A program made the translations under genes and the position numbers. Positions 19,163 to 48,886 of a DNA stretch of 64,000 bases are shown here, piece by piece; within the stretch, counting starts at the first letter, position 1, and every line of letters starts with the position of its first letter. The stretch lies in assembly GCA_965223265.1 (NCBI GenBank), contig OZ244999.1, positions 448,001-512,000 on the forward strand, given 5' to 3'. Below the pieces are notes generated by a model. That model was not told the origin of the DNA. It was given only the letters and a program-made list of their open reading frames with translations, and did no database searches. This stretch comes from Planctomycetota bacterium (GTDB taxonomy: Bacteria > Planctomycetota > UBA8108 > SXIK01).

Positions 19163-21866
19163 GACACGCCTGCGGATTCAAGGCCGCCACTCTGCGTTTC
19201 CAGAGGGGTTGCTGTATCGCTGTCTGCGTCGGAGTCGCTTTCTCGTTGTTGTCTGCACTTGCGTCGCCAGCGCCTTCGCGACGTCACCGCGGAACGTTGA
19301 CGCGGATTCGGCGAGCCGCGATCCGTCGGACAAAGAACCCGGCTCACCGCGGCAACTCACCCCAGAGGAAATCGAGAAGCGGCGGCAAGCTCTCTCGCGT
19401 TGGGTGTTCGAGCCCGTGGCCCTCGATGGGGACAGCTTCCGGCTTCTGATCGATCGACGCGACAGCAGCTTTGTGCTGCAAGACCTGCGAACTCAGGCGA
19501 AGTGGTACTCGTCTTGGGGACGACGTGGGTTCGCAAGTGTTCAGCTGGCAGGCGGGGGGGAGCGGGCGGCGGAGTCGGAGACAGAGACGGAGTCGGAGAC
19601 AGAGACAGAGACGGAGGCGGAGGCAGAGACGGAGACAGAGACAGAGACGGAGGCGGAGACAGAGACGGAGGCGGAGACAGAGACGGAGGCGGAGACAGAG
19701 ACGGAGGCGGAGACAGAGACGGAGGCGGAGACAGAGACGGAGGCGGAGACAGAGACGGAAGCAAAGTTAGAGACGGACAGGGAGTTCGAGGCCGATACGC
19801 CCACGCCCACGCCCACGCAAACGCCCACGCAAACGCAAACGCAAACGCAAACGCAAACGCAAACGCAAACGCAAACGGCTTCCAACTCGGCCGGCGATCC
19901 TCAGGCGCGATCGTCCACCGTCTCCGCCTCCGAGTGGCTCGCTCTCGACGAGGTCCTTGAGGTGCGGCCGCGGGGTTCGGTCGTTTCGCTGTTGCTTGCT
20001 CCTCGTGGCCGCGCTGATGTTTTCAAGCTGCGCTGCGAGTTTGAGGTGCTGCCATCGCGGCGCGGGTTTGTGCTGCGCTACGCGGTCGACGCGTCGAGTT
20101 CGCCTGCAAGGCGCTTGCGGCTTCTCGATGCGTCGCTGTGGCTCTCCGATGCGGACGATGGGGCGGCGGCGTACTTGCCGCGCGGTGCTGGCGAGCGGGT
20201 GCGCCCCGGCGCGTCCACGATGTTTCGCCGTCGCTTGTCGGGGAGCCGCGTGGGGATGTCCCATGCTGCGATCGGCGCGGAGGCCGCGGCGATGCCGTTC
20301 GTCGGGGTTCGTAAGGACACGTCGTCGGTGCTGGTGCGTTGGAGCGATCCAGCGTTGGAGATGATCGTGGAGGGGCGAACGACGTCGGACGCGCGTTTTC
20401 CAGGTTCGGATGGGCTTTTCGTGTCGCTCGAGTCTTCCGCTTCTCGCGGTGAGGTGGACATCCTCTGTAGCGGCGGCGGGGAGCTCGATTGGATGGAGCT
20501 CGTGCGCCTCCACCGGGAGACGCAACCTCGGAGAAAGTCGCTACGCTTCAAGACTGGTGCGCAGCGTTCTCATCGCGCTTTGATTGGTGCTGCGATATTT
20601 CGACCGCGCGTCAGTGAATCGCACAGTTTCGATGCGATCGCGCAGCGGGCTGTGGAGCTGCATGAAAAAATCGAGATCGACCGCGCGCTGGTGGTGTTTG
20701 ACGATTGGGGTACTTGTGAGCAAGGGATTCTTCGACCTCGCGCCGATGCCGGTGGGGTTTCGGCGCTGCGCAGAAGTCTTGAGCACCTGCGCGAGATAGG
20801 CTACCTCGTTGGACTGAGCGTTGACACGCGGCGGCTTGCGCCCTGCGCGGCCGGTCGTCTAGGCGCCGAGCCGCAGGGCGCTGCGTCGCCCGAGAATCCG
20901 TGGCCATCGCGGCTCGAAGCCGTGCAAGATTTCGAAGTCTTGGCGTCGGCTGCGGAGCTTGGGCCGGATTTGCTTCTCACTTTGGAGAAGCCATCGCCTC
21001 GATATCCAGCCGCTCTACTGCCTGCGGTGCTCCGTTCTCGCCAGCTCTTTTACGACGAGCTGGGGCGCCGATTCGATCTCCTGGGGCTCGAGGTTGGAAG
21101 CAGTGCCGATCTCGATTCCGCTGTCTACTTCGGGGGGCTTTTGGACACTCGAAGCGCCGTGTCCGAGGATGGGTTGTCCCCGGCCACGTCGGTCCCGCTC
21201 TTCAGCGCAGTGCACGGTCGCCACGTGCGCATTGGGGCTCGCGACAGCCGCTGCGCCCAAGCGGATGACCCTGTCGCCGTCCTCTCTCATCTCATCGCTG
21301 GTGAAGTGCCCCTTTACTCGCTTGTATCGCTTCCTGAAGGATCGGCACGGGCGGTTGAGGATTCCTCGAACGCAACAGATCCTCGGTGGACGTTCGCTCG
21401 GGAGGACGGATGGTGCGCTGGGCGCGACCTGACGCCAGATGAAATCTTCATCAAGAACACCTACGAAGTCCTCTCGTACGTCGCGCGACATCGCGCGCGG
21501 TCGCCCATGTTTTATCATCGCCGTGTGCCGTGCGAGGGGGCCGAGGTGTATGAATCTTTCTTCGGCCATGACCTTAGAGTGCTCGTTAACTATGGTCCTG
21601 GGGTTTTCGAGGATGCAGACGACGAGGTGGTTCTACCGCCGCTGGGGTTTTTCGTTCGCCATCCCTTCTTTCTTGCTTTTCACGCCCGAGCGGTGTTCGG
21701 TGCGGCTTATCGCCAGCCAAGTTTGTTCGTCATCCGATCGCTCGAGGGTAAGATGATTTATCGAGCCGAACGCGTCTATATGTACCGCGGCTTCGGCGAT
21801 CGGCAGCTACGACTCGGCGGCAAGCGGTTCACGGTAGAGCGTGAACTGGTAACGAGGATTCGCTGA
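19152..21866 (+). CDS. Large hypothetical exported protein (distant glycoside hydrolase/DUF5696-like) carrying an in-frame simple-repeat insertion
   Basis: ~900-aa ORF with E/T/A and PT/QT low-complexity insert; PLFSAVH and FIKNTYEVLS motifs; family call is weak. Confidence 0.6.
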   Translation: MTPETRLRIQGRHSAFPEGLLYRCLRRSRFLVVVCTCVASAFATSPRNVDADSASRDPSDKEPGSPRQLTPEEIEKRRQALSRWVFEPVALDGDSFRLLIDRRDSSFVLQDLRTQAKWYSSWGRRGFASVQLAGGGERAAESETETESETETETEAEAETETETETEAETETEAETETEAETETEAETETEAETETEAETETEAKLETDREFEADTPTPTPTQTPTQTQTQTQTQTQTQTQTASNSAGDPQARSSTVSASEWLALDEVLEVRPRGSVVSLLLAPRGRADVFKLRCEFEVLPSRRGFVLRYAVDASSSPARRLRLLDASLWLSDADDGAAAYLPRGAGERVRPGASTMFRRRLSGSRVGMSHAAIGAEAAAMPFVGVRKDTSSVLVRWSDPALEMIVEGRTTSDARFPGSDGLFVSLESSASRGEVDILCSGGGELDWMELVRLHRETQPRRKSLRFKTGAQRSHRALIGAAIFRPRVSESHSFDAIAQRAVELHEKIEIDRALVVFDDWGTCEQGILRPRADAGGVSALRRSLEHLREIGYLVGLSVDTRRLAPCAAGRLGAEPQGAASPENPWPSRLEAVQDFEVLASAAELGPDLLLTLEKPSPRYPAALLPAVLRSRQLFYDELGRRFDLLGLEVGSSADLDSAVYFGGLLDTRSAVSEDGLSPATSVPLFSAVHGRHVRIGARDSRCAQADDPVAVLSHLIAGEVPLYSLVSLPEGSARAVEDSSNATDPRWTFAREDGWCAGRDLTPDEIFIKNTYEVLSYVARHRARSPMFYHRRVPCEGAEVYESFFGHDLRVLVNYGPGVFEDADDEVVLPPLGFFVRHPFFLAFHARAVFGAAYRQPSLFVIRSLEGKMIYRAERVYMYRGFGDRQLRLGGKRFTVERELVTRIR
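19569..19878 (+). repeat. Compound hexamer microsatellite: (GAGACA GAGACG GAGGCG)n followed by (CCCACG)n/(CAAACG)n
   Basis: Directly visible tandem 6/18-mer units, in frame within the ORF. Confidence 0.95.
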
Positions 21867-35441: not shown

Positions 35442-35788
35442 TATACTGGCCGGCTAGCTCGAGTTTGGCCATTTCGCGTCGAGCCTGCCAGCGCCAGGAG
35501 CGTCGAGGCCAAGGAGCGACTCGGGCGCGATCCTGCTCGGGTCGTGGCGGAGGACGGGCGCGGGCATCGGCGCTCCTGGCGTTCCCCGAAGGGCCGGACA
35601 GGAGTTTTTGAACTTTCACAAGGGTTCTCAGGGTACAAAAAAGTTGAAAGGGCCTTTGAATCCCCGCGAAACTCGTCCGGCCAGGCCGGCGCGAAATCGC
35701 CAAACTCGAGGCTAGACCTTCGGCCGCGGCCGTACTCGCGGTGCCTTCATCATTGACCGTCCCCGTGGGTCCACGCCATGGAGAAACT

Positions 35789-38700
35789 GTGAGCCAGCGC
35801 TCAACGCGACGAGAAGAATGGGACATCGACGCAGCCCTGCGGATCCTGCAGGCTTCCATCGATCCTTACATTTGGGATCAAGGGCAGGAGCTGTACCGGC
35901 GCGGCGCCGTCAAGGATTTCGCCATGTCGCAGGACGGCAACATTCGCGTGATCGTCCTTGATCCTCGCGATGCGCGGAACTTTTTCGTTAGCGTTCGACG
36001 CGAGCACGATGGCCGGATCGTCTCACATTGCGCGTGTCCGTATCGCTTGAACGGCCGATGTAGACATCAAGTTGTCGCACTCGAGTATTTGCGCGCGATA
36101 GCCGGTGGGGAGGCTCAACCAACCAGTGCCGCCGCCGCTGATGCTGCCGTCGAGTCGCCGCGCGTCAGTGGAGGCGACGTCAGTGATGCGGCGGGGAAAG
36201 CAGGGCCGGTACTCTACCGCCTATTTGACCCTCCATGCGACGTGGTGACAGCGGAGGACGGTTCGCTGCTGCGCCTTGTACTGCTATCGCTCGGCTCGGC
36301 CACGACGGCGCACCGTGTGGCGCTTCAGCTTTTCACCACGACTGGCTGGGGAGAAGTACGGACGCCGGAACTCGATCGCTGGATCGGCCGCGGAGATGTT
36401 GGGCCGCACCCGCGTGATTTGGCGCTTCGATCGACGCTTGCCGGGGATGGAGGCATTCGAAATGACGTCGATTCCGAGACGTTTGGGTATCTTCTGACTG
36501 TCGTCGCCGAGAGTTCCGCGCTGGTTGACCGATCGGGAAATGTGCTTGCTGTCTCACGCGATCCTTGGCGTCTGCGCACCGATGTGGAACGTTCAGGTGA
36601 GACTTCAATCCGCGTGCGTTTCTCGTGCGTCTTCCCAGGGCGCGAGTCGCGTCGATTCGAAGAGGTGGCGCTCGTCCCTTCGACCAGCGCGTGGATCCAA
36701 CTCGACAGTGGCGCGTTCCATCCCCTGATCGCAGCCGTACCGGGGCCGCTACTCGCTGAGGTGCAGGTCGAAGAGCTGAGTGAGATCGCGCCGCCCGAAT
36801 TGGACCAGTTCTTGATCAGCGGCGTGCATCAGCTCGAACGTTTGACTCCCGGCATGTTCTTCATAGAGCCCGGTCTGATTCGAGAGGTGGAAGGTGTAGA
36901 TAGCGCGCGCGTCCGGTTGAGCGCCATTGGCGACGAGTCTAGTGGAGGCTTTGCCGGTCAGCTTGAATTCCTCTACGGCGACGAATGGGTCGAGGCGCCG
37001 AGCGATCCAACGCCTTGGACGATCGATCAAGGCGGCAAGATCCACCGCTACCCTGCGGCGGGGCAGTCCCTCGCAAAGGCGCGACGTGAGCTCGAGAATG
37101 TCGGCTTCCGCCACGCAGATGGCGAATGGCGGCTCGAAGGGGAAGACGCGCTCGAGCGCGTGTTATCACAAGCGCCAGATTCGTTCGTCTCATTCGATCT
37201 GCCGCAGGAAGCAGCCGCGCGTGATTTTGTGAGTCGCGCACCACGCGTCCGTGTTGCGGTAGAGACGACGGACGAGAACGCAGATGGGACCCCGCAGTTG
37301 CGGCTTTCTCTTGAGCTGTTCGATGGCGATCGGCGACTCAGTTTTTCCACCGCTGAATTTGCTGAGCTCACTCCGGCCGGACGTCGAGGCTTCTTTCGCC
37401 TAGAAGACGAATCGATTGTGGATCCACGCCATCCAGGAGTGCGCGATCTCATCGAGCTGCTCGCCGCCGCCCACCGTTCAGGATCTGAACCGAGCCTCGA
37501 GGATGGGCGGCTCTGCCTTTCTGCGCCCGCGAGTGCAGTCGCGCTCATAGCCGACGCCAGCGATGAAGTGGATTTGGAACTTTCGCCGCGGGTCGCCCGT
37601 CTGTGTGAGAGGTTGAGCGGGCATCGGCTGGACGGGTCGGAAGAGATCGACGCATCTGGTTTTCAGGACAGCGTCGTGAAAACGCTGCGTGAGTATCAAC
37701 TCGCAGCCGTTGCATGGTTCGGGGCGCTCGCCGAGTGGGGGCTCGCCGGAGTGCTTGCTGACGAGATGGGACTCGGAAAGACTTTGATGACTCTTGCGCA
37801 CTTCTTCGGGCGCACGACAGCCGGCGCGCGCTCAGGAGAAGCGGCAGAGCCGGGCCATGCGGCGCTACCGGTGTTGGTCGTCTGCCCGACGAGCCTGGTC
37901 TTCAATTGGCTTGACGAGACGCAGCGATTTTTTCCAGAGGTGCGGACGACGTCGCTGCAGGGACTGCCGCGAGAGAAGCGCGAGGCGCTCCTCGGTTCTG
38001 ATACTGATATGATCGTGACCTCCTACGCGCTGATGAGACGCGACCGGGAGGCGTTGGAAGCGCTGCAGTTTCGTGCTGTAGTCCTCGACGAGGCCCAGCA
38101 TGTCAAGAACGCGGCGAGCCAGACGGCGAAGGCCGCGTTTGCGCTCCGGGCGCAGCAGCGCTGGGCGCTCACCGGCACGCCGATGGAAAACCATCTTGGC
38201 GAGATCTGGTCGATCTTCCGTTTTCTGTTGCCGGGATTCCTCGGTACGCAAGACGAGTTCGTCAAGGAATACCGAGAGCCCGCGGAGCGAGGCGACGACA
38301 CGGCTGTGACGCAGTTGCGACGGCGAGTGCGTCCCTTCATCTTGCGCCGCACCAAGACGGAGGTTTTGACGGATCTCCCTGAGCTGATCGAGCAGACGCG
38401 ACGGGTGCCGCTGTCGCCGCTGCAGCGTCAACTCTACGACGCGGAGTTGGCGGCTGCGCGCGAAGTCGTAGAGGGAGCTGAGGGGCCACAGGCGCGCATC
38501 AAGGTTCTCGCTGCGCTGACTCGCCTGCGGCAGATCTGCTGCGATCCGGGATTGATTCTTGACGACGAAGACCTCGCAACACTGCGAACGACTGAGGAGA
38601 CCGTCGTCAGCAGCAAGATGGAGCTACTCCTCGAGTTGCTTGAGGAGTGTATCGATGAACAGCATCGCGTCCTTCTTTTCAGTCAATTCACCAGCATGCT

Positions 38701-39115
38701 TGATCTCATCGAGTTGCGCCTCGACGAACGTAGCGTCGATCGCTGTCGACTCGATGGCGCAACACGCGATCGCGAGGCTCAGGTGCGGCGTTTTCAGGGC
38801 GATGGCGCAGTGCCAATCTTTCTCATCAGTCTCAAGGCTGGCGGCTACGGTCTCAATCTGACCGCGGCCGACATCGTGATTCTTTTCGATCCATGGTGGA
38901 ACCCGGCGACGGAAGCCCAGGCCGTGGCGAGAGCTCATCGCATGGGGCAGATGATGCCCGTGCATGTTCATAAGCTGGTGGCCGCAGACACCGTCGAGGA
39001 AAGAATCCAGGAGCTTCAGGAGACGAAACGAGACCTGGCCTCCCGTCTTCTCGAAACGGGTGAAGATCCGTTCGCGCAGCTGAATCTCGATACCTTGCGC
39101 GAGCTTTTCGCGTAA
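35789..39115 (+). CDS. SWIM-domain SNF2/DEAD-like helicase
   Basis: CACP...CRH SWIM motif; LADEMGLGKT, DEAQ, TGTPMEN, SLKAGGYGLNL, DPWWNP. Confidence 0.93.
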   Translation: MSQRSTRREEWDIDAALRILQASIDPYIWDQGQELYRRGAVKDFAMSQDGNIRVIVLDPRDARNFFVSVRREHDGRIVSHCACPYRLNGRCRHQVVALEYLRAIAGGEAQPTSAAAADAAVESPRVSGGDVSDAAGKAGPVLYRLFDPPCDVVTAEDGSLLRLVLLSLGSATTAHRVALQLFTTTGWGEVRTPELDRWIGRGDVGPHPRDLALRSTLAGDGGIRNDVDSETFGYLLTVVAESSALVDRSGNVLAVSRDPWRLRTDVERSGETSIRVRFSCVFPGRESRRFEEVALVPSTSAWIQLDSGAFHPLIAAVPGPLLAEVQVEELSEIAPPELDQFLISGVHQLERLTPGMFFIEPGLIREVEGVDSARVRLSAIGDESSGGFAGQLEFLYGDEWVEAPSDPTPWTIDQGGKIHRYPAAGQSLAKARRELENVGFRHADGEWRLEGEDALERVLSQAPDSFVSFDLPQEAAARDFVSRAPRVRVAVETTDENADGTPQLRLSLELFDGDRRLSFSTAEFAELTPAGRRGFFRLEDESIVDPRHPGVRDLIELLAAAHRSGSEPSLEDGRLCLSAPASAVALIADASDEVDLELSPRVARLCERLSGHRLDGSEEIDASGFQDSVVKTLREYQLAAVAWFGALAEWGLAGVLADEMGLGKTLMTLAHFFGRTTAGARSGEAAEPGHAALPVLVVCPTSLVFNWLDETQRFFPEVRTTSLQGLPREKREALLGSDTDMIVTSYALMRRDREALEALQFRAVVLDEAQHVKNAASQTAKAAFALRAQQRWALTGTPMENHLGEIWSIFRFLLPGFLGTQDEFVKEYREPAERGDDTAVTQLRRRVRPFILRRTKTEVLTDLPELIEQTRRVPLSPLQRQLYDAELAAAREVVEGAEGPQARIKVLAALTRLRQICCDPGLILDDEDLATLRTTEETVVSSKMELLLELLEECIDEQHRVLLFSQFTSMLDLIELRLDERSVDRCRLDGATRDREAQVRRFQGDGAVPIFLISLKAGGYGLNLTAADIVILFDPWWNPATEAQAVARAHRMGQMMPVHVHKLVAADTVEERIQELQETKRDLASRLLETGEDPFAQLNLDTLRELFA

Positions 39116-39129
39116 CCCTGCGGTCGAGC

Positions 39130-39256
39130 GCGGAGGCAGAGGCAGAGGCAGAGGCGGAGGCAGAGGCGGAAGCAGAGGCGGAGGCAGAGGCAGAGGCGGA
39201 AGCAGAGGCGGAGGCAGAGGCAGAGGCAGAGGCAGAGGCAGGCAGAGGCAGAGGCA
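39130..39256 (+). repeat. (GAGGCA/GAGGCG)n hexamer microsatellite, left flank of IS array
   Basis: About 21 tandem units visible, with GAAGCA variants and one 2-nt slip near 39241. Confidence 0.97.
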
Positions 39257-39820
39257 CCTATGGTCCGACTGTTGTCAACGGGGGAGCTTTCTTTTCTTGA
39301 TTGTCTTCAATCCGACGTGGGGCAGTTGGGTTGCCTGGGGGTCCGGGGGGCGGCGGGTAGAGCGCCCCCGGGCTCTGTGCAGCCCGGAAGGTACCGCACG
39401 CGGGAGAGATCATTCTGGGTTGCCTGGGGGTCCGGGGGGCGGCGGGTAGAGCGCCCCCGGGCTCTGTGCAGCCCGGAAGGTACCGCACGCGGGAGAGATC
39501 ATTTTCGTAGTAGTGCTGTGTTGTCTTTGGGCTGGCGGTAAAGAAGCCAAGTGTTCGGTTCGCTCTGAGCGCCGGGGCGGCAAAGCGCCTCGCGGCCAAC
39601 TCCTATGCGTGTCCGCTCTCTGGCGGATCACCTGATACTGCGTTCGCATCGCGGCAGGCGAACCGACAAGGACGGTTCCTTCTGAGAAGCACGGCGGCTT
39701 GGAAAGCCAGCCCAGCCTCTGCTCGAACGCGTCCTACAGTCGGCCAAGAATCCGAGTCAGCCCTGCAGGTCCCTCCGTTTGAGTTGGGTTGGTGTGTTGA
39801 GCCTGTTGCTGGTCATCGAA
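39257..39820 (-). ncRNA. 3' non-coding end of the element, predicted to encode a bridge/seek RNA (equivalents at 41036-41510, 42744-43307, 44559-45033, 46267-46830)
   Basis: Long, stem-rich non-coding region downstream of the recombinase as in IS1111-type elements; short matches to target and junction; RNA ends unknown. Confidence 0.65.
39327..39503 (+). repeat. 89-bp tandem duplication within the element (copies 1, 3 and 5 only)
   Basis: TGGGTTGCCTGGGGGTCC...GAGAGATCATT occurs twice; accounts for 1743 vs 1654 bp. Confidence 0.95.
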
Positions 39821-40948
39821 TTAGGAACTGAGCCGTGCCAAGGGAGGTGGTACGTCAGTGCTGAGGAATCGCCAGAGCGAAATGAGCAGCTTTCTGGCTA
39901 AGGCGACGATTCCCGCCTTGCGCGAGCGCTTGGTGCCTGGCCCATAGCGCTGGCAGAACCATTGAGATAGCTGGCTCTGTGGCTGAAAGCGCAGCCAGTT
40001 CCAGGCAGCCTGAACCATGAGTGTGCGTACACGCCCGTTGCCAGCTTTGCTGATTCCTTGCTCGCGTTTGATGTTGTCACTGCGCCAGGGAACGCTCACC
40101 ATTCCTGCCAGGGCTCCGATTTCACGGCGATTGTTGAACTTACGCCAGAAGAACTCGTAGTAGAGCGTTGCGGCAGTGTACATGCCGATGCCGCGCAGGC
40201 TGTTGAGCTTGCCGACTTTCTTGCAGGCCTCCGGCGAGTTGGTGAGCGTTTCGAGAGTCTCGGCCTCAATCTCAGCGATTTGCTCTTCGACAAGCTGCAG
40301 CCGAGCGTGCTCGCGTAGCATGCCTGCCTTGGCATGCGGGGGGATCGCAGATCCATCGGGGCCGCGTAACGTGTCGATGATTTCAGGCAGCTTCTTGAGG
40401 CGGGCGCGGATGCCGAACTTGATCAACATGTCCTTGAGGCGATTGATGTGCCGAGTGCGATCCTTGACAAGGCGCTGACGCTCTCTTGGCAGGCGGCGCT
40501 CGTCCTCGATCTGCACGCTCGGCACATTGACAACGCGCAGTGGGCTGCGCGACGAGCCGTGGTGACGGATCAAAAGATCGAGCATCTTCTCTCCGTCGAG
40601 GCGATCGGTCTTTTGACGCTTGGCGCGCTGATCGACCTCGCAGCTAGCCGGGTCAATGACGGCGTTGTGGATCCCACTGTCTACGAGCCAGCGGTGCAGC
40701 CAGAATCCATCGCGGCCAGCTTCGTAGCAGCTCACCACCTCAGCTTGCGGCGAAAGGCGCAAGCGCGCCTTGGCTTTCGAGAGCTCTTCCTGAAACTCCG
40801 CAAGGTTTCCCGCCTCGACCGTCCTGCAGCGCGGCCGGCTCCCCGCAACACCGCTGACGAGCTTCCACGTTGTGTTGCCAACGTCAATTGCCACGTGAAG
40901 AACTTCGCTCATGTCGGTAAGCTGTCCCTGGGTCGTTCTTGTTGCCAT
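39821..40948 (-). CDS. IS110 family DEDD transposase/recombinase (375 aa), copy 1
   Basis: AID...CYEAG...KTDRLD DEDD tetrad; C-terminal RGIG, PWRSD serine, GISKAGN, VALARKL; AGGAG RBS. Confidence 0.96.
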   Translation of the reverse strand: MATRTTQGQLTDMSEVLHVAIDVGNTTWKLVSGVAGSRPRCRTVEAGNLAEFQEELSKAKARLRLSPQAEVVSCYEAGRDGFWLHRWLVDSGIHNAVIDPASCEVDQRAKRQKTDRLDGEKMLDLLIRHHGSSRSPLRVVNVPSVQIEDERRLPRERQRLVKDRTRHINRLKDMLIKFGIRARLKKLPEIIDTLRGPDGSAIPPHAKAGMLREHARLQLVEEQIAEIEAETLETLTNSPEACKKVGKLNSLRGIGMYTAATLYYEFFWRKFNNRREIGALAGMVSVPWRSDNIKREQGISKAGNGRVRTLMVQAAWNWLRFQPQSQLSQWFCQRYGPGTKRSRKAGIVALARKLLISLWRFLSTDVPPPLARLSS

Positions 40949-40999
40949 CTCTTCACTCCTAAAAAAGACTATGGTACACGAGGACGGCCCATAGTTTCT

Positions 41000-41035
41000 G
41001 AGGCGGAGGCAGAGGCAGAGGCAGAGGCAGAGGCA
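41000..41035 (+). repeat. Inter-element spacer: 6 GAGGCR units
   Basis: Counted directly. Confidence 0.95.
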
Positions 41036-42689
41036 CCTATGGTCCGACTGTTGTCAACGGGGGAGCTTTCTTTTCTTGATTGTCTTCAATCCGACGTGGG
41101 GCAGTTGGGTTGCCTGGGGGTCCGGGGGGCGGCGGGTAGAGCGCCCCCGGGCTCTGTGCAGCCCGGAAGGTACCGCACGCGGGAGAGATCATTTTCGTAG
41201 TAGTGCTGTGTTGTCTTTGGGCTGGCGGTAAAGAAGCCAAGTGTTCGGTTCGCTCTGAGCGCCGGGGCGGCAAAGCGCCTCGCGGCCAACTCCTATGCGT
41301 GTCCGCTCTCTGGCGGATCACCTGATACTGCGTTCGCATCGCGGCAGGCGAACCGACAAGGACGGTTCCTTCTGAGAAGCACGGCGGCTTGGAAAGCCAG
41401 CCCAGCCTCTGCTCGAACGCGTCCTACAGTCGGCCAAGAATCCGAGTCAGCCCTGCAGGTCCCTCCGTTTGAGTTGGGTTGGTGTGTTGAGCCTGTTGCT
41501 GGTCATCGAATTAGGAACTGAGCCGTGCCAACGGAGGTGGTACGTCAGTGCTGAGGAATCGCCAGAGCGAAATGAGCAGCTTTCTGGCTAAGGCGACGAT
41601 TCCCGCCTTGCGCGAGCGCTTGGTGCCTGGCCCATAGCGCTGGCAGAACCATTGAGATAGCTGGCTCTGTGGCTGAAAGCGCAGCCAGTTCCAGGCAGCC
41701 TGAACCATGAGTGTGCGTACACGCCCGTTGCCAGCTTTGCTGATTCCTTGCTCGCGTTTGATGTTGTCACTGCGCCAGGGAACGCTCACCATTCCTGCCA
41801 GGGCTCCGATTTCACGGCGATTGTTGAACTTACGCCAGAAGAACTCGTAGTAGAGCGTTGCGGCAGTGTACATGCCGATGCCGCGCAGGCTGTTGAGCTT
41901 GCCGACTTTCTTGCAGGCCTCCGGCGAGTTGGTGAGCGTTTCGAGAGTCTCGGCCTCAATCTCAGCGATTTGCTCTTCGACAAGCTGCAGCCGAGCGTGC
42001 TCGCGTAGCATGCCTGCCTTGGCATGCGGGGGGATCGCAGATCCATCGGGGCCGCGTAACGTGTCGATGATTTCAGGCAGCTTCTTGAGGCGGGCGCGGA
42101 TGCCGAACTTGATCAACATGTCCTTGAGGCGATTGATGTGCCGAGTGCGATCCTTGACAAGGCGCTGACGCTCTCTTGGCAGGCGGCGCTCGTCCTCGAT
42201 CTGCACGCTCGGCACGTTGACAACGCGCAGTGGGCTGCGCGACGAGCCGTGGTGACGGATCAAAAGATCGAGCATCTTCTCTCCGTCGAGGCGATCGGTC
42301 TTTTGACGCTTGGCGCGCTGATCGACCTCGCAGCTAGCCGGGTCAATGACGGCGTTGTGGATCCCACTGTCTACGAGCCAACGGTGCAGCCAGAATCCAT
42401 CGCGGCCAGCTTCGTAGCAGCTCACCACCTCAGCTTGCGGCGAAAGGCGCAAGCGCGCCTTGGCTTTCGAGAGCTCTTCCTGAAACTCCGCAAGGTTTCC
42501 CGCCTCGACCGTCCTGCAGCGCGGCCGGCTCCCCGCAACACCGCTGACGAGCTTCCACGTTGTGTTGCCAACGTCAATTGCCACGTGAAGAACTTCGCTC
42601 ATGTCGGTAAGCTGTCCCTGGGTCGTTCTTGTTGCCATCTCTTCACTCCTAAAAAAGACTATGGTACACGAGGACGGCCCATAGTTTCT
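41036..42689 (-). mobile_element. IS110/IS1111-type element, copy 2, short allele, 1654 bp
   Basis: Near-identical to copy 1; lacks the 89-bp duplication; 3 synonymous SNPs seen. Confidence 0.95.
41511..42638 (-). CDS. IS110 family transposase, copy 2
   Basis: Protein identical to copy 1. Confidence 0.96.
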   Translation of the reverse strand: MATRTTQGQLTDMSEVLHVAIDVGNTTWKLVSGVAGSRPRCRTVEAGNLAEFQEELSKAKARLRLSPQAEVVSCYEAGRDGFWLHRWLVDSGIHNAVIDPASCEVDQRAKRQKTDRLDGEKMLDLLIRHHGSSRSPLRVVNVPSVQIEDERRLPRERQRLVKDRTRHINRLKDMLIKFGIRARLKKLPEIIDTLRGPDGSAIPPHAKAGMLREHARLQLVEEQIAEIEAETLETLTNSPEACKKVGKLNSLRGIGMYTAATLYYEFFWRKFNNRREIGALAGMVSVPWRSDNIKREQGISKAGNGRVRTLMVQAAWNWLRFQPQSQLSQWFCQRYGPGTKRSRKAGIVALARKLLISLWRFLSTDVPPPLARLSS

Positions 42690-42743
42690 GAGGCGGAGGC
42701 AGAGGCAGAGGCAGAGGCAGAGGCGGAGGCAGAGGCAGAGGCA
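42690..42743 (+). repeat. Inter-element spacer: 9 GAGGCR units
   Basis: Counted directly. Confidence 0.95.
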
Positions 42744-44486
42744 CCTATGGTCCGACTGTTGTCAACGGGGGAGCTTTCTTTTCTTGATTGTCTTCAATCC
42801 GACGTGGGGCAGTTGGGTTGCCTGGGGGTCCGGGGGGCGGCGGGTAGAGCGCCCCCGGGCTCTGTGCAGCCCGGAAGGTACCGCACGCGGGAGAGATCAT
42901 TCTGGGTTGCCTGGGGGTCCGGGGGGCGGCGGGTAGAGCGCCCCCGGGCTCTGTGCAGCCCGGAAGGTACCGCACGCGGGAGAGATCATTTTCGTAGTAG
43001 TGCTGTGTTGTCTTTGGGCTGGCGGTAAAGAAGCCAAGTGTTCGGTTCGCTCTGAGCGCCGGGGCGGCAAAGCGCCTCGCGGCCAACTCCTATGCGTGTC
43101 CGCTCTCTGGCGGATCACCTGATACTGCGTTCGCATCGCGGCAGGCGAACCGACAAGGACGGTTCCTTCTGAGAAGCACGGCGGCTTGGAAAGCCAGCCC
43201 AGCCTCTGCTCGAACGCGTCCTACAGTCGGCCAAGAATCCGAGTCAGCCCTGCAGGTCCCTCCGTTTGAGTTGGGTTGGTGTGTTGAGCCTGTTGCTGGT
43301 CATCGAATTAGGAACTGAGCCGTGCCAAGGGAGGTGGTACGTCAGTGCTGAGGAATCGCCAGAGCGAAATGAGCAGCTTTCTGGCTAAGGCGACGATTCC
43401 CGCCTTGCGCGAGCGCTTGGTGCCTGGCCCATAGCGCTGGCAGAACCATTGAGATAGCTGGCTCTGTGGCTGAAAGCGCAGCCAGTTCCAGGCAGCCTGA
43501 ACCATGAGTGTGCGTACACGCCCGTTGCCAGCTTTGCTGATTCCTTGCTCGCGTTTGATGTTGTCACTGCGCCAGGGAACGCTCACCATTCCTGCCAGGG
43601 CTCCGATTTCACGGCGATTGTTGAACTTACGCCAGAAGAACTCGTAGTAGAGCGTTGCGGCAGTGTACATGCCGATGCCGCGCAGGCTGTTGAGCTTGCC
43701 GACTTTCTTGCAGGCCTCCGGCGAGTTGGTGAGCGTTTCGAGAGTCTCGGCCTCAATCTCAGCGATTTGCTCTTCGACAAGCTGCAGCCGAGCGTGCTCG
43801 CGTAGCATGCCTGCCTTGGCATGCGGGGGGATCGCAGATCCATCGGGGCCGCGTAACGTGTCGATGATTTCAGGCAGCTTCTTGAGGCGGGCGCGGATGC
43901 CGAACTTGATCAACATGTCCTTGAGGCGATTGATGTGCCGAGTGCGATCCTTGACAAGGCGCTGACGCTCTCTTGGCAGGCGGCGCTCGTCCTCGATCTG
44001 CACGCTCGGCACATTGACAACGCGCAGTGGGCTGCGCGACGAGCCGTGGTGACGGATCAAAAGATCGAGCATCTTCTCTCCGTCGAGGCGATCGGTCTTT
44101 TGACGCTTGGCGCGCTGATCGACCTCGCAGCTAGCCGGGTCAATGACGGCGTTGTGGATCCCACTGTCTACGAGCCAGCGGTGCAGCCAGAATCCATCGC
44201 GGCCAGCTTCGTAGCAGCTCACCACCTCAGCTTGCGGCGAAAGGCGCAAGCGCGCCTTGGCTTTCGAGAGCTCTTCCTGAAACTCCGCAAGGTTTCCCGC
44301 CTCGACCGTCCTGCAGCGCGGCCGGCTCCCCGCAACACCGCTGACGAGCTTCCACGTTGTGTTGCCAACGTCAATTGCCACGTGAAGAACTTCGCTCATG
44401 TCGGTAAGCTGTCCCTGGGTCGTTCTTGTTGCCATCTCTTCACTCCTAAAAAAGACTATGGTACACGAGGACGGCCCATAGTTTCT
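42744..44486 (-). mobile_element. IS110/IS1111-type element, copy 3, long allele, 1743 bp
   Basis: Same allele as copy 1. Confidence 0.95.
43308..44435 (-). CDS. IS110 family transposase, copy 3
   Basis: Protein identical to copy 1. Confidence 0.96.
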   Translation of the reverse strand: MATRTTQGQLTDMSEVLHVAIDVGNTTWKLVSGVAGSRPRCRTVEAGNLAEFQEELSKAKARLRLSPQAEVVSCYEAGRDGFWLHRWLVDSGIHNAVIDPASCEVDQRAKRQKTDRLDGEKMLDLLIRHHGSSRSPLRVVNVPSVQIEDERRLPRERQRLVKDRTRHINRLKDMLIKFGIRARLKKLPEIIDTLRGPDGSAIPPHAKAGMLREHARLQLVEEQIAEIEAETLETLTNSPEACKKVGKLNSLRGIGMYTAATLYYEFFWRKFNNRREIGALAGMVSVPWRSDNIKREQGISKAGNGRVRTLMVQAAWNWLRFQPQSQLSQWFCQRYGPGTKRSRKAGIVALARKLLISLWRFLSTDVPPPLARLSS

Positions 44487-44558
44487 GAGGCAGAGGCAGA
44501 GGCAGAGGCAGAGGCGGAGGCAGAGGCAGAGGCAGAGGCAGAGGCGGAGGCAGAGGCA
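44487..44558 (+). repeat. Inter-element spacer: 12 GAGGCR units
   Basis: Counted directly. Confidence 0.95.
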
Positions 44559-46212
44559 CCTATGGTCCGACTGTTGTCAACGGGGGAGCTTTCTTTTCTT
44601 GATTGTCTTCAATCCGACGTGGGGCAGTTGGGTTGCCTGGGGGTCCGGGGGGCGGCGGGTAGAGCGCCCCCGGGCTCTGTGCAGCCCGGAAGGTACCGCA
44701 CGCGGGAGAGATCATTTTCGTAGTAGTGCTGTGTTGTCTTTGGGCTGGCGGTAAAGAAGCCAAGTGTTCGGTTCGCTCTGAGCGCCGGGGCGGCAAAGCG
44801 CCTCGCGGCCAACTCCTATGCGTGTCCGCTCTCTGGCGGATCACCTGATACTGCGTTCGCATCGCGGCAGGCGAACCGACAAGGACGGTTCCTTCTGAGA
44901 AGCACGGCGGCTTGGAAAGCCAGCCCAGCCTCTGCTCGAACGCGTCCTACAGTCGGCCAAGAATCCGAGTCAGCCCTGCAGGTCCCTCCGTTTGAGTTGG
45001 GTTGGTGTGTTGAGCCTGTTGCTGGTCATCGAATTAGGAACTGAGCCGTGCCAAGGGAGGTGGTACGTCAGTGCTGAGGAATCGCCAGAGCGAAATGAGC
45101 AGCTTTCTGGCTAAGGCGACGATTCCCGCCTTGCGCGAGCGCTTGGTGCCTGGCCCATAGCGCTGGCAGAACCATTGAGATAGCTGGCTCTGTGGCTGAA
45201 AGCGCAGCCAGTTCCAGGCAGCCTGAACCATGAGTGTGCGTACACGCCCGTTGCCAGCTTTGCTGATTCCTTGCTCGCGTTTGATGTTGTCACTGCGCCA
45301 GGGAACGCTCACCATTCCTGCCAGGGCTCCGATTTCACGGCGATTGTTGAACTTACGCCAGAAGAACTCGTAGTAGAGCGTTGCGGCAGTGTACATGCCG
45401 ATGCCGCGCAGGCTGTTGAGCTTGCCGACTTTCTTGCAGGCCTCCGGCGAGTTGGTGAGCGTTTCGAGAGTCTCGGCCTCAATCTCAGCGATTTGCTCTT
45501 CGACAAGCTGCAGCCGAGCGTGCTCGCGTAGCATGCCTGCCTTGGCATGCGGGGGGATCGCAGATCCATCGGGGCCGCGTAACGTGTCGATGATTTCAGG
45601 CAGCTTCTTGAGGCGGGCGCGGATGCCGAACTTGATCAACATGTCCTTGAGGCGATTGATGTGCCGAGTGCGATCCTTGACAAGGCGCTGACGCTCTCTT
45701 GGCAGGCGGCGCTCGTCCTCGATCTGCACGCTCGGCACGTTGACAACGCGCAGTGGGCTGCGCGACGAGCCGTGGTGACGGATCAAAAGATCGAGCATCT
45801 TCTCTCCGTCGAGGCGATCGGTCTTTTGACGCTTGGCGCGCTGATCGACCTCGCAGCTAGCCGGGTCAATGACGGCGTTGTGGATCCCACTGTCTACGAG
45901 CCAACGGTGCAGCCAGAATCCATCGCGGCCAGCTTCGTAGCAGCTCACCACCTCAGCTTGCGGCGAAAGGCGCAAGCGCGCCTTGGCTTTCGAGAGCTCT
46001 TCCTGAAACTCCGCAAGGTTTCCCGCCTCGACCGTCCTGCAGCGCGGCCGGCTCCCCGCAACACCGCTGACGAGCTTCCACGTTGTGTTGCCAACGTCAA
46101 TTGCCACGTGAAGAACTTCGCTCATGTCGGTAAGCTGTCCCTGGGTCGTTCTTGTTGCCATCTCTTCACTCCTAAAAAAGACTATGGTACACGAGGACGG
46201 CCCATAGTTTCT
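44559..46212 (-). mobile_element. IS110/IS1111-type element, copy 4, short allele, 1654 bp
   Basis: Short allele sharing two SNPs with copy 2. Confidence 0.95.
45034..46161 (-). CDS. IS110 family transposase, copy 4
   Basis: Protein identical to copy 1. Confidence 0.96.
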   Translation of the reverse strand: MATRTTQGQLTDMSEVLHVAIDVGNTTWKLVSGVAGSRPRCRTVEAGNLAEFQEELSKAKARLRLSPQAEVVSCYEAGRDGFWLHRWLVDSGIHNAVIDPASCEVDQRAKRQKTDRLDGEKMLDLLIRHHGSSRSPLRVVNVPSVQIEDERRLPRERQRLVKDRTRHINRLKDMLIKFGIRARLKKLPEIIDTLRGPDGSAIPPHAKAGMLREHARLQLVEEQIAEIEAETLETLTNSPEACKKVGKLNSLRGIGMYTAATLYYEFFWRKFNNRREIGALAGMVSVPWRSDNIKREQGISKAGNGRVRTLMVQAAWNWLRFQPQSQLSQWFCQRYGPGTKRSRKAGIVALARKLLISLWRFLSTDVPPPLARLSS

Positions 46213-46266
46213 GAGGCGGAGGCAGAGGCAGAGGCAGAGGCAGAGGCGGAGGCAGAGGCAGAGGCA
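46213..46266 (+). repeat. Inter-element spacer: 9 GAGGCR units (same sequence as 42690-42743)
   Basis: Counted directly. Confidence 0.95.
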
Positions 46267-48009
46267 CCTATGGTCCGACTGTTGTCAACGGGGGAGCTTT
46301 CTTTTCTTGATTGTCTTCAATCCGACGTGGGGCAGTTGGGTTGCCTGGGGGTCCGGGGGGCGGCGGGTAGAGCGCCCCCGGGCTCTGTGCAGCCCGGAAG
46401 GTACCGCACGCGGGAGAGATCATTCTGGGTTGCCTGGGGGTCCGGGGGGCGGCGGGTAGAGCGCCCCCGGGCTCTGTGCAGCCCGGAAGGTACCGCACGC
46501 GGGAGAGATCATTTTCGTAGTAGTGCTGTGTTGTCTTTGGGCTGGCGGTAAAGAAGCCAAGTGTTCGGTTCGCTCTGAGCGCCGGGGCGGCAAAGCGCCT
46601 CGCGGCCAACTCCTATGCGTGTCCGCTCTCTGGCGGATCACCTGATACTGCGTTCGCATCGCGGCAGGCGAACCGACAAGGACGGTTCCTTCTGAGAAGC
46701 ACGGCGGCTTGGAAAGCCAGCCCAGCCTCTGCTCGAACGCGTCCTACAGTCGGCCAAGAATCCGAGTCAGCCCTGCAGGTCCCTCCGTTTGAGTTGGGTT
46801 GGTGTGTTGAGCCTGTTGCTGGTCATCGAATTAGGAACTGAGCCGTGCCAAGGGAGGTGGTACGTCAGTGCTGAGGAATCGCCAGAGCGAAATGAGCAGC
46901 TTTCTGGCTAAGGCGACGATTCCCGCCTTGCGCGAGCGCTTGGTGCCTGGCCCATAGCGCTGGCAGAACCATTGAGATAGCTGGCTCTGTGGCTGAAAGC
47001 GCAGCCAGTTCCAGGCAGCCTGAACCATGAGTGTGCGTACACGCCCGTTGCCAGCTTTGCTGATTCCTTGCTCGCGTTTGATGTTGTCACTGCGCCAGGG
47101 AACGCTCACCATTCCTGCCAGGGCTCCGATTTCACGGCGATTGTTGAACTTACGCCAGAAGAACTCGTAGTAGAGCGTTGCGGCAGTGTACATGCCGATG
47201 CCGCGCAGGCTGTTGAGCTTGCCGACTTTCTTGCAGGCCTCCGGCGAGTTGGTGAGCGTTTCGAGAGTCTCGGCCTCAATCTCAGCGATTTGCTCTTCGA
47301 CAAGCTGCAGCCGAGCGTGCTCGCGTAGCATGCCTGCCTTGGCATGCGGGGGGATCGCAGATCCATCGGGGCCGCGTAACGTGTCGATGATTTCAGGCAG
47401 CTTCTTGAGGCGGGCGCGGATGCCGAACTTGATCAACATGTCCTTGAGGCGATTGATGTGCCGAGTGCGATCCTTGACAAGGCGCTGACGCTCTCTTGGC
47501 AGGCGGCGCTCGTCCTCGATCTGCACGCTCGGCACATTGACAACGCGCAGTGGGCTGCGCGACGAGCCGTGGTGACGGATCAAAAGATCGAGCATCTTCT
47601 CTCCGTCGAGGCGATCGGTCTTTTGACGCTTGGCGCGCTGATCGACCTCGCAGCTAGCCGGGTCAATGACGGCGTTGTGGATCCCACTGTCTACGAGCCA
47701 GCGGTGCAGCCAGAATCCATCGCGGCCAGCTTCGTAGCAGCTCACCACCTCAGCTTGCGGCGAAAGGCGCAAGCGCGCCTTGGCTTTCGAGAGCTCTTCC
47801 TGAAACTCCGCAAGGTTTCCCGCCTCGACCGTCCTGCAGCGCGGCCGGCTCCCCGCAACACCGCTGACGAGCTTCCACGTTGTGTTGCCAACGTCAATTG
47901 CCACGTGAAGAACTTCGCTCATGTCGGTAAGCTGTCCCTGGGTCGTTCTTGTTGCCATCTCTTCACTCCTAAAAAAGACTATGGTACACGAGGACGGCCC
48001 ATAGTTTCT
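46267..48009 (-). mobile_element. IS110/IS1111-type element, copy 5, long allele, 1743 bp
   Basis: Same allele as copies 1 and 3. Confidence 0.95.
46831..47958 (-). CDS. IS110 family transposase, copy 5
   Basis: Same 375-aa protein; true start at 47958 by identity with the other copies. Confidence 0.96.
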   Translation of the reverse strand: MATRTTQGQLTDMSEVLHVAIDVGNTTWKLVSGVAGSRPRCRTVEAGNLAEFQEELSKAKARLRLSPQAEVVSCYEAGRDGFWLHRWLVDSGIHNAVIDPASCEVDQRAKRQKTDRLDGEKMLDLLIRHHGSSRSPLRVVNVPSVQIEDERRLPRERQRLVKDRTRHINRLKDMLIKFGIRARLKKLPEIIDTLRGPDGSAIPPHAKAGMLREHARLQLVEEQIAEIEAETLETLTNSPEACKKVGKLNSLRGIGMYTAATLYYEFFWRKFNNRREIGALAGMVSVPWRSDNIKREQGISKAGNGRVRTLMVQAAWNWLRFQPQSQLSQWFCQRYGPGTKRSRKAGIVALARKLLISLWRFLSTDVPPPLARLSS

Positions 48010-48066
48010 GAGGCAGAGGCGGAGGCAGAGGCAGAGGCAGAGGCAGAAACAGCGGCAGAGGCAGAA
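48010..48066 (+). repeat. (GAGGCR)n microsatellite, right flank, degenerating
   Basis: 6 perfect units followed by GAAACA GCGGCA GAGGCA. Confidence 0.95.
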
Positions 48067-48642: not shown

Positions 48643-48886
48643 GGAGAGGCGGAGACAGAACCAGATACAGAGTCAGAAACAGAGGCGGAGACAGAATACA
48701 GAACCAGATACAGAGTCAGAAGCAGAAACAGAAACGGATACAGAAACGGATACGGAGGCAGAAGCGATTACCGGCACGCCCACGCCCACGCCCACGCCCA
48801 CGCCCACGCCCACGCCCACGCCCACGCACTCACAAACGCCCACGCACTCACAAACGCCCACGCAAACGCCCTCGCCCTCGCCCACC
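48643..48886 (+). repeat. Compound hexamer microsatellite: degenerate GA(G/A/T)(A/G)C(A/G) units followed by (ACGCCC)n and CACTCACAAACGCCC units
   Basis: Directly visible in the intergenic region. Confidence 0.92.

Follow-up and report, generated by a model that had tools for sequence, protein, structure and literature searches.

A probable target-binding loop of an IS1111-type bridge/seek RNA that would read a microsatellite in a Planctomycetota bacterium

Introduction

In insertion sequence (IS) elements of the IS1111 group, including ISEc11, ISPa11 and ISKpn4, the non-coding DNA downstream of the transposase gene specifies a seekRNA (Siddiquee et al. 2024, PMC11187229), and in the available text of Durrant et al. 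2024 (PMC11208160) right-end bridge RNAs are predicted in 93.0% of the IS1111 elements held in ISfinder. As described in the accessible portions of that paper and of Hiraizumi et al. 2024 (PMC11208158), the IS621/IS110 bridge RNA has a target loop and a donor loop, each with sides that pair with opposite strands around a shared dinucleotide, and the accessible portions of the latter also describe handshake guides for IS621. Here, a stretch of 64,000 nucleotides (nt) from a Planctomycetota bacterium (contig OZ244999.1, positions 448,001 to 512,000; hereafter the window) was analyzed, which carries an array of five head-to-tail IS110/IS1111-type copies with (CTGCCT)n tracts between them. The segment of interest, at window positions 39640-39730 on the minus strand, lies 91-181 nt 3' of the stop codon of the recombinase open reading frame (ORF, 39821-40948) of the first copy. 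This segment likely falls within the target-binding loop of a ~200-nt IS1111-type bridge/seek RNA that would read a microsatellite, and both guides can be placed. The assignment is based on RNA homology to a covarying family, on the positions of the guides, and on complementarity between guides and flanks in the family and in the element itself; production of the RNA, its binding by the protein and the chemistry of strand exchange are what we infer.

The locus shares several features with the IS1111 seekRNA systems (PMC11187229). The RNA region follows downstream of a DEDD transposase gene, the ends bear subterminal inverted repeats, the top-strand match is 5' of the bottom-strand match, and both matches meet at the insertion point. 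There is no target duplication, and the -35-like hexamer at the right end could form a circle-junction promoter, again as in IS1111 elements (PMC11187229). In contrast to the described members, the transposase is 375 rather than 330-350 amino acids (aa) long and has S-D in place of S(T)-G, and the target, known here from sequence alone, is a hexanucleotide microsatellite rather than a REP, an attC or a unique site (PMC11187229). Relative to IS621/IS110 as presented in the available parts of PMC11208160 and PMC11208158, the arrangement of a target loop and a donor loop with sides for opposite strands is the same. Unlike in IS621, to the extent covered by those parts, the RNA is in the right rather than the left end, and within each loop the guides come in the reverse order. 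In addition, the core of IS621 is CT in donor and target alike, whereas here the IS side has AG and the dinucleotide of the target may differ (TG). Reminiscent of the handshake guides of IS621, extra bases adjacent to the guides match the partner DNA; such possible handshake-like bases come after the left-type guides here, and those of IS621 belong to the right-target guide (RTG) and right-donor guide (RDG), according to the accessible text of PMC11208158.

The element is a new, distant IS110/IS1111 member with an unusual microsatellite target. It fits the IS1111 pattern in the available text of Durrant et al. 2024 (PMC11208160), with closest relatives that are at most 48% identical, and the relatives used here may already be catalogued in the supplements of the cited papers, such as Supplementary Table 5 of Durrant et al. 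2024. The known principle is unchanged, as right-end bridge RNAs of IS1111 elements have already been published.

A covarying RNA family in the 3' regions of related elements

A scan of genome contigs yielded 80 related loci with transposases 41-47% identical to that of the window. These relatives are mostly from Burkholderiales, with a few from Pirellulales, Planctomycetota, Gemmatimonadota, Acidobacteriota and Reyranella. A further 81 loci comprise 80 metagenome loci and one in a different genome of the phylum, and the family totals ~130 related loci. No closer relatives were found: relatives were present in none of the three other genomes of the same taxonomic family and in one of 400 other sampled genomes of the phylum (47% identical), the best matches on genome and metagenome contigs being 47% and 48% identical, respectively.

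When the 3' regions of the relatives were read side by side, a common two-loop RNA was evident, and the family ends have the form AG-AT(A/G/C/T)CTATG on the left and TTGAC...CATAGA-AG on the right. RNAalifold analysis of 51 dereplicated loop-1 segments gave an outer helix and an inner hairpin, with compensatory changes in 10 of 12 pairs. Two covariance models were then constructed from relatives only, with the window sequence excluded: R1 describes loop 1 alone, and R2, from 51 relatives, describes both loops over 210 positions. In a cmsearch of both strands of the 64-kb window, R2 matches only the five IS copies (copy 1 at 39542-39745 on the minus strand, 46.6 bits, E=4.3e-12), and R1 likewise matches these five copies only (14.1 bits, E=0.076). 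R2 also recovers 74 of the 81 further loci at E<=0.001. In an alignment of 70 distinct rows, which was fitted to the model so that its pairing is somewhat inflated, 95.2% of cells are paired and both sides change in 22 of 27 pairs. This level of pairing is reached by 0 of 500 shuffles, and slid controls are 31-39% paired. Folded as a single sequence, a 261-nt segment is no more stable than its shuffles (z = -0.02).

Because a model made from relatives alone matches with an E value of this size, a two-loop bridge/seek RNA is predicted to be encoded at 39542-39745. This result agrees with the original prediction, which had placed the target-binding loop of such an RNA 3' of the recombinase gene.

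The right-target guide

One of the two guides in the original prediction was the 8-mer GCAGAGGC. It is complementary to the top-strand sequence G+CCTCTGC, which consists of the second base of the junction dinucleotide and 7 nt of the right flank, and with U39714 included it would pair over 9 nt were the dinucleotide AG. The family models place this 8-mer in the guide columns, where the corresponding segments of the relatives are complementary to their own right flanks over many targets.

This complementarity was measured in two sets of loci. The genome set consists of the 57 loci with a readable right junction; it was not dereplicated and includes several copies of the same IS. At every locus, the loop-1 region was searched for its longest exact complement to the locus's own junction dinucleotide and the next 13 nt of the right flank. 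In 37 of these loci the complement reaches 8 nt or more (median 9; 10 nt in 2 loci, 9 in 27, 8 in 8, 7 in 7, 6 in 9, 5 in 2 and 4 in 2). When the flanks of elements with other targets were used as a control, 2.0% of 2,426 pairs reach this length. The complement occupies the same place in the RNA at most loci (-106 to -117 relative to the left-donor guide), and at nearly all loci it begins at the dinucleotide G or a few bases away. An independent test with the metagenome loci was restricted to the guide columns defined by the model, and 19 of 74 loci that lack a readable right junction were omitted. Among 50 unique guide/flank pairs, 31 match over at least 8 nt and 33 over at least 7 nt, compared with 0.28% and 0.33% of 2,132 control pairs. 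The remaining 17 pairs are mostly near-matches with a single interruption. More than 15 clearly different targets are tracked by this one RNA segment, including GCCGCCGTT, GCGCCCACC, GCCGGATAC, TCTTACTGT, GGCTGGGGA and GTGTGTTGC.

The right guide of the window element, with its 8-nt match, is in the same register as those of the relatives: it starts 111 nt before the left-donor guide, and relatives with their best match in the guide columns show a distance of 106-117 nt. Since the homologous segment is complementary to each relative's own right flank, the 8-mer is, on comparative grounds, the right-target guide. The covariance model of homologues, and the covariation of the guide positions with their targets, had been put forward as a check of the original prediction, and its central idea is supported by both.

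In three relatives (L108, L130 and L150), the right flank GTCTCCTCCTCT was considered as a possible microsatellite target. This was rejected, as these flanks represent a conserved unique site with no repeat.

The left-target guide and the fold of the target-binding loop

Both R1 and R2 align GUGCUUCUCAGAAGG with the family sequence GU....UAGAUGG. On its 3' side, the family's loop 1 has the form (left flank)-AG-AU-GG, and its homologous segment in the window is GUGCUUCUC-AG-AA-GG. The left-target guide is accordingly placed at CUC-AG-AA, which corresponds to the top-strand left flank CTC, the dinucleotide AG and the next two bases, AA, of the IS left end. In 55 unique family pairs, contiguous identity with the left flank beside AG averages 2.07 nt, compared with 0.38 nt in controls; it is 4-5 nt in 8 of the 55 pairs and as long as 8 nt in one metagenome locus (L129). 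Read from this alignment, the second guide covers just 3 nt of flank, a shortness typical of the family. The resulting internal loop has two sides that match opposite target strands around the insertion point, with a right guide of 8 nt and a left guide of 3+2+2 nt. The segment that would pair with the top strand is 5' of the one that would pair with the bottom strand, which is the order published for IS1111 (PMC11187229) and the order originally predicted.

Six metagenome loci (L111, L117, L125, L147, L149 and L158) share the left end of the window element (AG-AAACTATG) and are nearest to it in end sequence, yet their transposases are 43-45% identical. Their left guide, CCGGUC-AG-AA, matches the 6-nt left flank CCGGTC at five of the six loci, and at L149 (ACGGTC) it matches five of six bases.

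The loop is closed in the models by a helix between GGACGCGUUC and GAACCGUCC, which is also used in the free minimum-energy fold (-44.3 kcal/mol for 106 nt) and in a fold with the guides kept unpaired (-34.6 kcal/mol). A different layout had been proposed in the original prediction, where the loop is closed by a 7-bp stem of GCGUUCG (39730-39724) with CGAACGC (39646-39640), the guides are GCAGAGGC (39722-39715) and CUGCC (39657-39653), and two hairpins, GGCUU/AAGCC and GAACCG/CGGUUC, lie between them. Every one of these motifs is present on the minus strand at those positions, CUGCC has the top-strand sequence of the repeat, and the fold is stable in its own right (-23.6 kcal/mol). Furthermore, GUUCG, GAACCG, CGGUUCG and CGAAC can pair in two ways, which could represent an alternative state.

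In this exact form, the layout is nonetheless very unlikely to be correct. Its closing stem is neither homologous nor thermodynamically preferred: R1 and R2 both use the GGACGCGUUC/GAACCGUCC helix, and this different helix is taken by both the free and the guides-unpaired folds of the same 106 nt. On the family columns (68-69 distinct rows), the seven pairs of the proposed stem form in 42/68, 52/66, 59/67, 0/68, 1/68, 67/67 and 66/66 rows, and those of the GAACCG/CGGUUC hairpin in 21/67, 23/64, 12/64, 45/48, 28/68 and 40/68 rows, such that neither is a family feature. CUGCC aligns with the conserved inter-loop linker (..CCAGCGC..), which is nearly invariant among homologues with different targets, and invariance of this kind had been named in advance as a finding that would speak against a guide. 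The match of a 5-mer to a 6-bp repeat is, moreover, expected by chance. Of the two hairpins, GGCUU/AAGCC is retained inside the family inner hairpin, whereas GAACCG/CGGUUC competes with the closing helix. The concern that the two guide segments could pair with each other holds, though for the corrected pair (AGAGGC/GCUUCU).

The CUGCC region was also considered directly as a left guide. In strict register (..CCUGCCG-CG-AUG) it has no contiguous identity with the left flank; shifted by 1 nt, CUGCCGC agrees with CTGCCTC at 6 of 7 positions, but the models place no guide there. CUGCC is found in the loop of a possible linker hairpin, GGUUCG...CGAAC.

The donor-binding loop and the recombinase

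The second loop of the predicted RNA carries guides that fit this element's own ends, as is expected of a bridge/seek RNA. In the family, the right-donor guide covaries with the left end (GUAU/ATAC, GCAU/ATGC, GGAU/ATCC, GAAU/ATTC and GUCU/AGAC). The left-donor guide aligns with the family's nearly invariant CACGGAUAGAAG, which corresponds to the family right end CATAGA-AG.

In columns 265-281 of the donor-binding loop (DBL) in alignment A3, inspected by eye, the first right-flank base is often matched, or wobble-paired, by the base that follows the left-donor AG. Cases with G, C, A or T are seen across the relatives. This would be a second handshake-like contact.

The recombinase has the domains of the IS110 family (PF02371, E=3.6e-14; PF01548, E=4.1e-10) and matches the NCBIfam model NF033542, 'IS110 family RNA-guided transposase', with 194.4 bits (cut-off 140). 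The IS110-family motif is G..P....S(T)G, in which the serine is the nucleophile and the glycine is described as conserved. At residues ~283-292 the window recombinase reads GMVSVPWRSD where the family has GL.P.PY.SG, such that the serine is retained and the glycine is replaced by aspartate. Among the 81 metagenome and phylum loci, the motif ends in SG in 55 and in SD in 1, with 25 loci that gave no match to the regular expression. The S-D carriers among the relatives are only L086 and L090, both genome loci, and L171.

Junctions and insertion sites

The host genome is a single contig of 9.18 Mb with 61% G+C. Three further full copies (L006, L007 and L008) are located outside the window, and the eight copies occupy four separate genomic sites. 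All eight lie inside CTGYCT-type tracts, with the recombinase strand the same as the CTGCCT strand, and their junctions are alike (left ...CTC-AG-AAACTATGG..., right ...CCATAGG-TG-YCTCTGCC...). The copies are 100% identical over at least 1,585 nt with intact ORFs, and the 91-nt segment has the same sequence in all five tandem copies, where it starts at 39640, 41330, 43127, 44853 and 46650. Copy 1 begins with AG-AAACTATGG... and ends with ...GGACCATAGG; the right-end sequence TTGAC...CATAGAAG is kept in the relatives. The subterminal inverted repeats (left CTATGG-G-CCG, right CGG-A-CCATAG) are separated by 5 nt from the left boundary and by 1 nt from the right; they match at 9 of 10 positions, consistent with the 7-17 bp of IS1111 elements. 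Consistent with the same group, ~51 nt of non-coding sequence is upstream of the gene and 475 nt is downstream (564 nt with an internal duplication, without which the IS is 1,654 bp long).

All eight copies have AG as the left junction dinucleotide and TG as the right one (40998-40999 and 39255-39256 in copy 1), and both left-type guides of the RNA read AG. In the relatives, the left AG is constant and the right dinucleotide varies, even within one IS (AG at L061 and AA at L062); others have AA or GG. The simplest reading of these sequences is that AG would belong to the IS and the right dinucleotide to the target. With this division, the element would sit exactly between two repeat units, in phase (CTGCCTC^TGCCTC). 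The 12-mer CTCTGCCTCTGC has 60 exact occurrences in the genome, and its AG variant has 1. A mismatch at the junction dinucleotide appears to be tolerated in the family.

These sites bear on the possibility that the match is a coincidence or a relic, in which there would be no working guide RNA and the element would have spread only by tandem duplication and by homologous recombination between microsatellite tracts. The 8-mer taken alone is not significant, the identity of spacers 2/3 and 4/5 over 90 nt indicates that the array arose partly by duplication, and the recombinase has S-D instead of S-G. This explanation is very unlikely given that four separate sites, all of them CTGYCT tracts, hold the element in the orientation predicted from the guide and with the same junction structure, that 8/8 copies are identical with intact ORFs, and that the guide is in the homologous register. 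The S-D motif is, in addition, common to three relatives, and the two of these that can be scored (L086 and L090) have 8-nt guide/flank matches. Most unlikely of all is a real but short seekRNA that reads the resident flanks mainly for excision, with target choice left largely to the protein or to the structure of the repeat DNA: the left guide does fit the integrated junction CTC-AG-AA better than the empty site CTC-TG-CC, and target-derived flanks are required for circle formation (PMC11187229), but the 5' guide tracks very different right flanks over 8-9 nt across the family, which is hard to explain without target reading by RNA, and published reprogramming through these segments changed the targets (PMC11187229).

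Observations that weigh against the assignment

Several observations weigh against a microsatellite-reading bridge/seek RNA at this locus. The first group concerns the RNA and its homology. R1 on its own is a weak match. With blastn (word size 7), the non-coding region had zero matches among the 80 genome loci, and the RNA homology therefore rests on the covariance models. An Rfam cmscan of 39100-41100 (E up to 10) returned three weak, unrelated matches, none of them in 39542-39745. With the nearest relative at most 48% identical, the element's own lineage offers no natural retargeting test.

The second group concerns the guides and the protein. When the 475-nt non-coding region was dinucleotide-shuffled 2,000 times, 12% of the shuffles contained at least one 8-mer of any phase or strand of (CTGCCT)n, and for shuffles of the whole IS the figure is 44%; as judged from sequence, the 8-mer gains significance only from the homologous place that it takes in the family RNA. 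The left guide matches only three bases of the flank, and a guide A faces a T of the microsatellite. In the minimum-energy fold, the two guide sides of loop 1 (AGAGGC/GCUUCU) pair together, which could compete with DNA binding. In the donor-binding loop, the right-donor guide GUAUC agrees with the left end G+AAAC at 4 of 5 positions, with one mismatch, and the left-donor guide has AG where the right junction has TG. Across the family, the correspondence between the second base after the dinucleotide and the IS left end is inconsistent, with a full match in 11 of 18 unique combinations. Finally, the window recombinase has S-D where the family has S-G.

Proposed target reading and its implications

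Under the published mechanism, this RNA would associate with the recombinase and expose two internal loops, of which loop 1 would read the target: its 5' side, GCAGAGGC, would pair with the top strand of the right target half (G+CCTCTGC), and its 3' side, CUC-AG-AA, which equals the left target half, the dinucleotide and the first bases of the IS, would pair with the bottom strand. The loop would be closed by GGACGCGUUC/GAACCGUCC and contain one inner hairpin. Loop 2 would read the joined IS ends by means of GUAUC and CAUAGG-AG. The site read would be approximately (T/C)CTC-NG-CCTCTGC, and the presence of all eight copies in such tracts in one orientation would follow because this site recurs every 6 bp in (CTGCCT)n.

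A wider proposal, which is put forward tentatively as possible though not the likelier outcome, is that the IS is specialized on a hexanucleotide microsatellite and reinserts into the same tract to seed arrays, and that the family departs twice from IS621. With a site of ~12-13 nt every 6 bp, each insertion would leave intact sites on both sides, such that the tract could be hit again in the same orientation. Repeated insertions would then seed IS-repeat-IS arrays, which unequal recombination would amplify. As a first possible departure, the dinucleotide of the right junction may be derived from the target and need not equal the donor AG (TG here; AA or GG in some relatives). As a second, the handshake-like bases after the left-type guides suggest a different order of strand exchange.

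The locus provides a natural case of an IS1111-type guide RNA, worked through with both predicted loops mapped to the base, beyond the Proteobacteria-centered printed examples. A microsatellite target would explain an otherwise odd tandem array of five IS copies, and a periodic target may be a way round the rule that an inserting element abolishes the site it used. The family also supplies, for engineering purposes, guide layouts in which the right guide is long (8-9 nt) and the left one very short (1-5 nt). In a brief literature search, which is not proof of absence, no printed IS110 element in a microsatellite was found. The available part of a preprint (bioRxiv 10.64898/2026.08.14.744561) describes tandem duplication of IS110 modules together with adjacent non-coding repeats. 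The five-copy array and an 89-bp duplication in the present element are similar to these expanded loci; unlike there, insofar as that part covers it, the target here is periodic and intact targets flank every copy. The terms 'microsatellite' and 'simple repeat' have zero occurrences in the available part of the preprint.

Table 1. Positions of the element, its recombinase gene, the predicted RNA and the repeat tracts in the window.
Feature	Position	Strand	Description	Basis
Predicted two-loop bridge/seek RNA	39542-39745	-	Target-binding and donor-binding loops	R2 cmsearch
Right-target guide	39715-39722	-	GCAGAGGC	Guide columns of the family model
Left-target guide	39680-39686	-	CUC-AG-AA	Model alignment
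Closing helix, 5' strand	39725-39734	-	GGACGCGUUC	Model alignment and folds
Closing helix, 3' strand	39670-39678	-	GAACCGUCC	Model alignment and folds
Inner hairpin	39693-39713	-	GGC-U-GGCUU / AAGCC-GCC	Family helix 3; in the minimum-energy fold
Inter-loop linker	39640-39665	-	Nearly invariant in the family	Aligned to family ..uuCCAGCGcUu..gCGC
Right-donor guide	39634-39638	-	GUAUC	Aligned to family GGUAUG
Left-donor guide	39600-39607	-	CAUAGG-AG	Equals right end CCATAGG + AG
DEDD transposase/recombinase gene	39821-40948	-	375 aa	ORF and profile matches
IS copy 1	39257-40999	-	1,743 bp, including an 89-bp internal duplication	Homology with the ends of relatives
IS copies 2-5	41036-42689, 42744-44486, 44559-46212, 46267-48009			
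Right end	39258-39278	-	-35-like TTGACA (39273-39278); subterminal inverted repeat CGGACCATAG (39258-39267)	
Left end	40985-40999	-	AG-AAA, then subterminal inverted repeat CTATGGGCCG	
(GAGGCA)n = (CTGCCT)n microsatellite, right flank of copy 1	39133-39256			Tandem Repeats Finder and regular-expression scan
Similar tracts	41000-41035, 42690-42743, 44487-44558, 46213-46266, 48010-48065			

The array and its surroundings

The exact 89-bp tandem duplication is located between the predicted RNA and the right end, at 39327-39503, 42814-42990 and 46337-46513. It alternates along the array, being present in copies 1, 3 and 5 and missing from copies 2 and 4, and it is apparently lacking in the three dispersed copies, as judged by the 1,585-nt length of their alignments. 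The spacers of the array consist of 5, 8, 11 and 8 repeat units. Because spacers 2/3 and 4/5 are the same over the 90 nt shown and the duplication alternates, the array was probably formed by duplication of a two-copy block rather than by five independent insertions.

Two solo fragments of the last 60-100 nt of the IS right end occur at other places in the genome: L009 (G000:C1:6414626-6414687), which is diverged and 94% identical to the right end, and L010 (G000:C1:5827833-5827925), which is 81% identical. These look like remnants of older copies. L009 adjoins another microsatellite, of the GTGAGA/GTGGGC type. The host genome is rich in hexanucleotide and 18-mer microsatellites that are related in composition, with CYGYCT, ACAGAA, CACGCC and GAGACGGAGGCGGAGACA units (window positions 19572-19877 and 48650-48885). 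At least four CYGYCT units occur in 35 regions of the genome, the majority of which are unoccupied.

A gene for a 1,124-aa protein (35741-39115, plus strand) stops 15-18 bp before the microsatellite that bears the array. Inspected by eye, its product is one that we take to be SNF2-family helicase-like with an N-terminal SWIM-like zinc finger. ORFs called in the repeats and in the non-coding DNA of the IS, such as 38853-39257 and 39258-39599, seem to be spurious.

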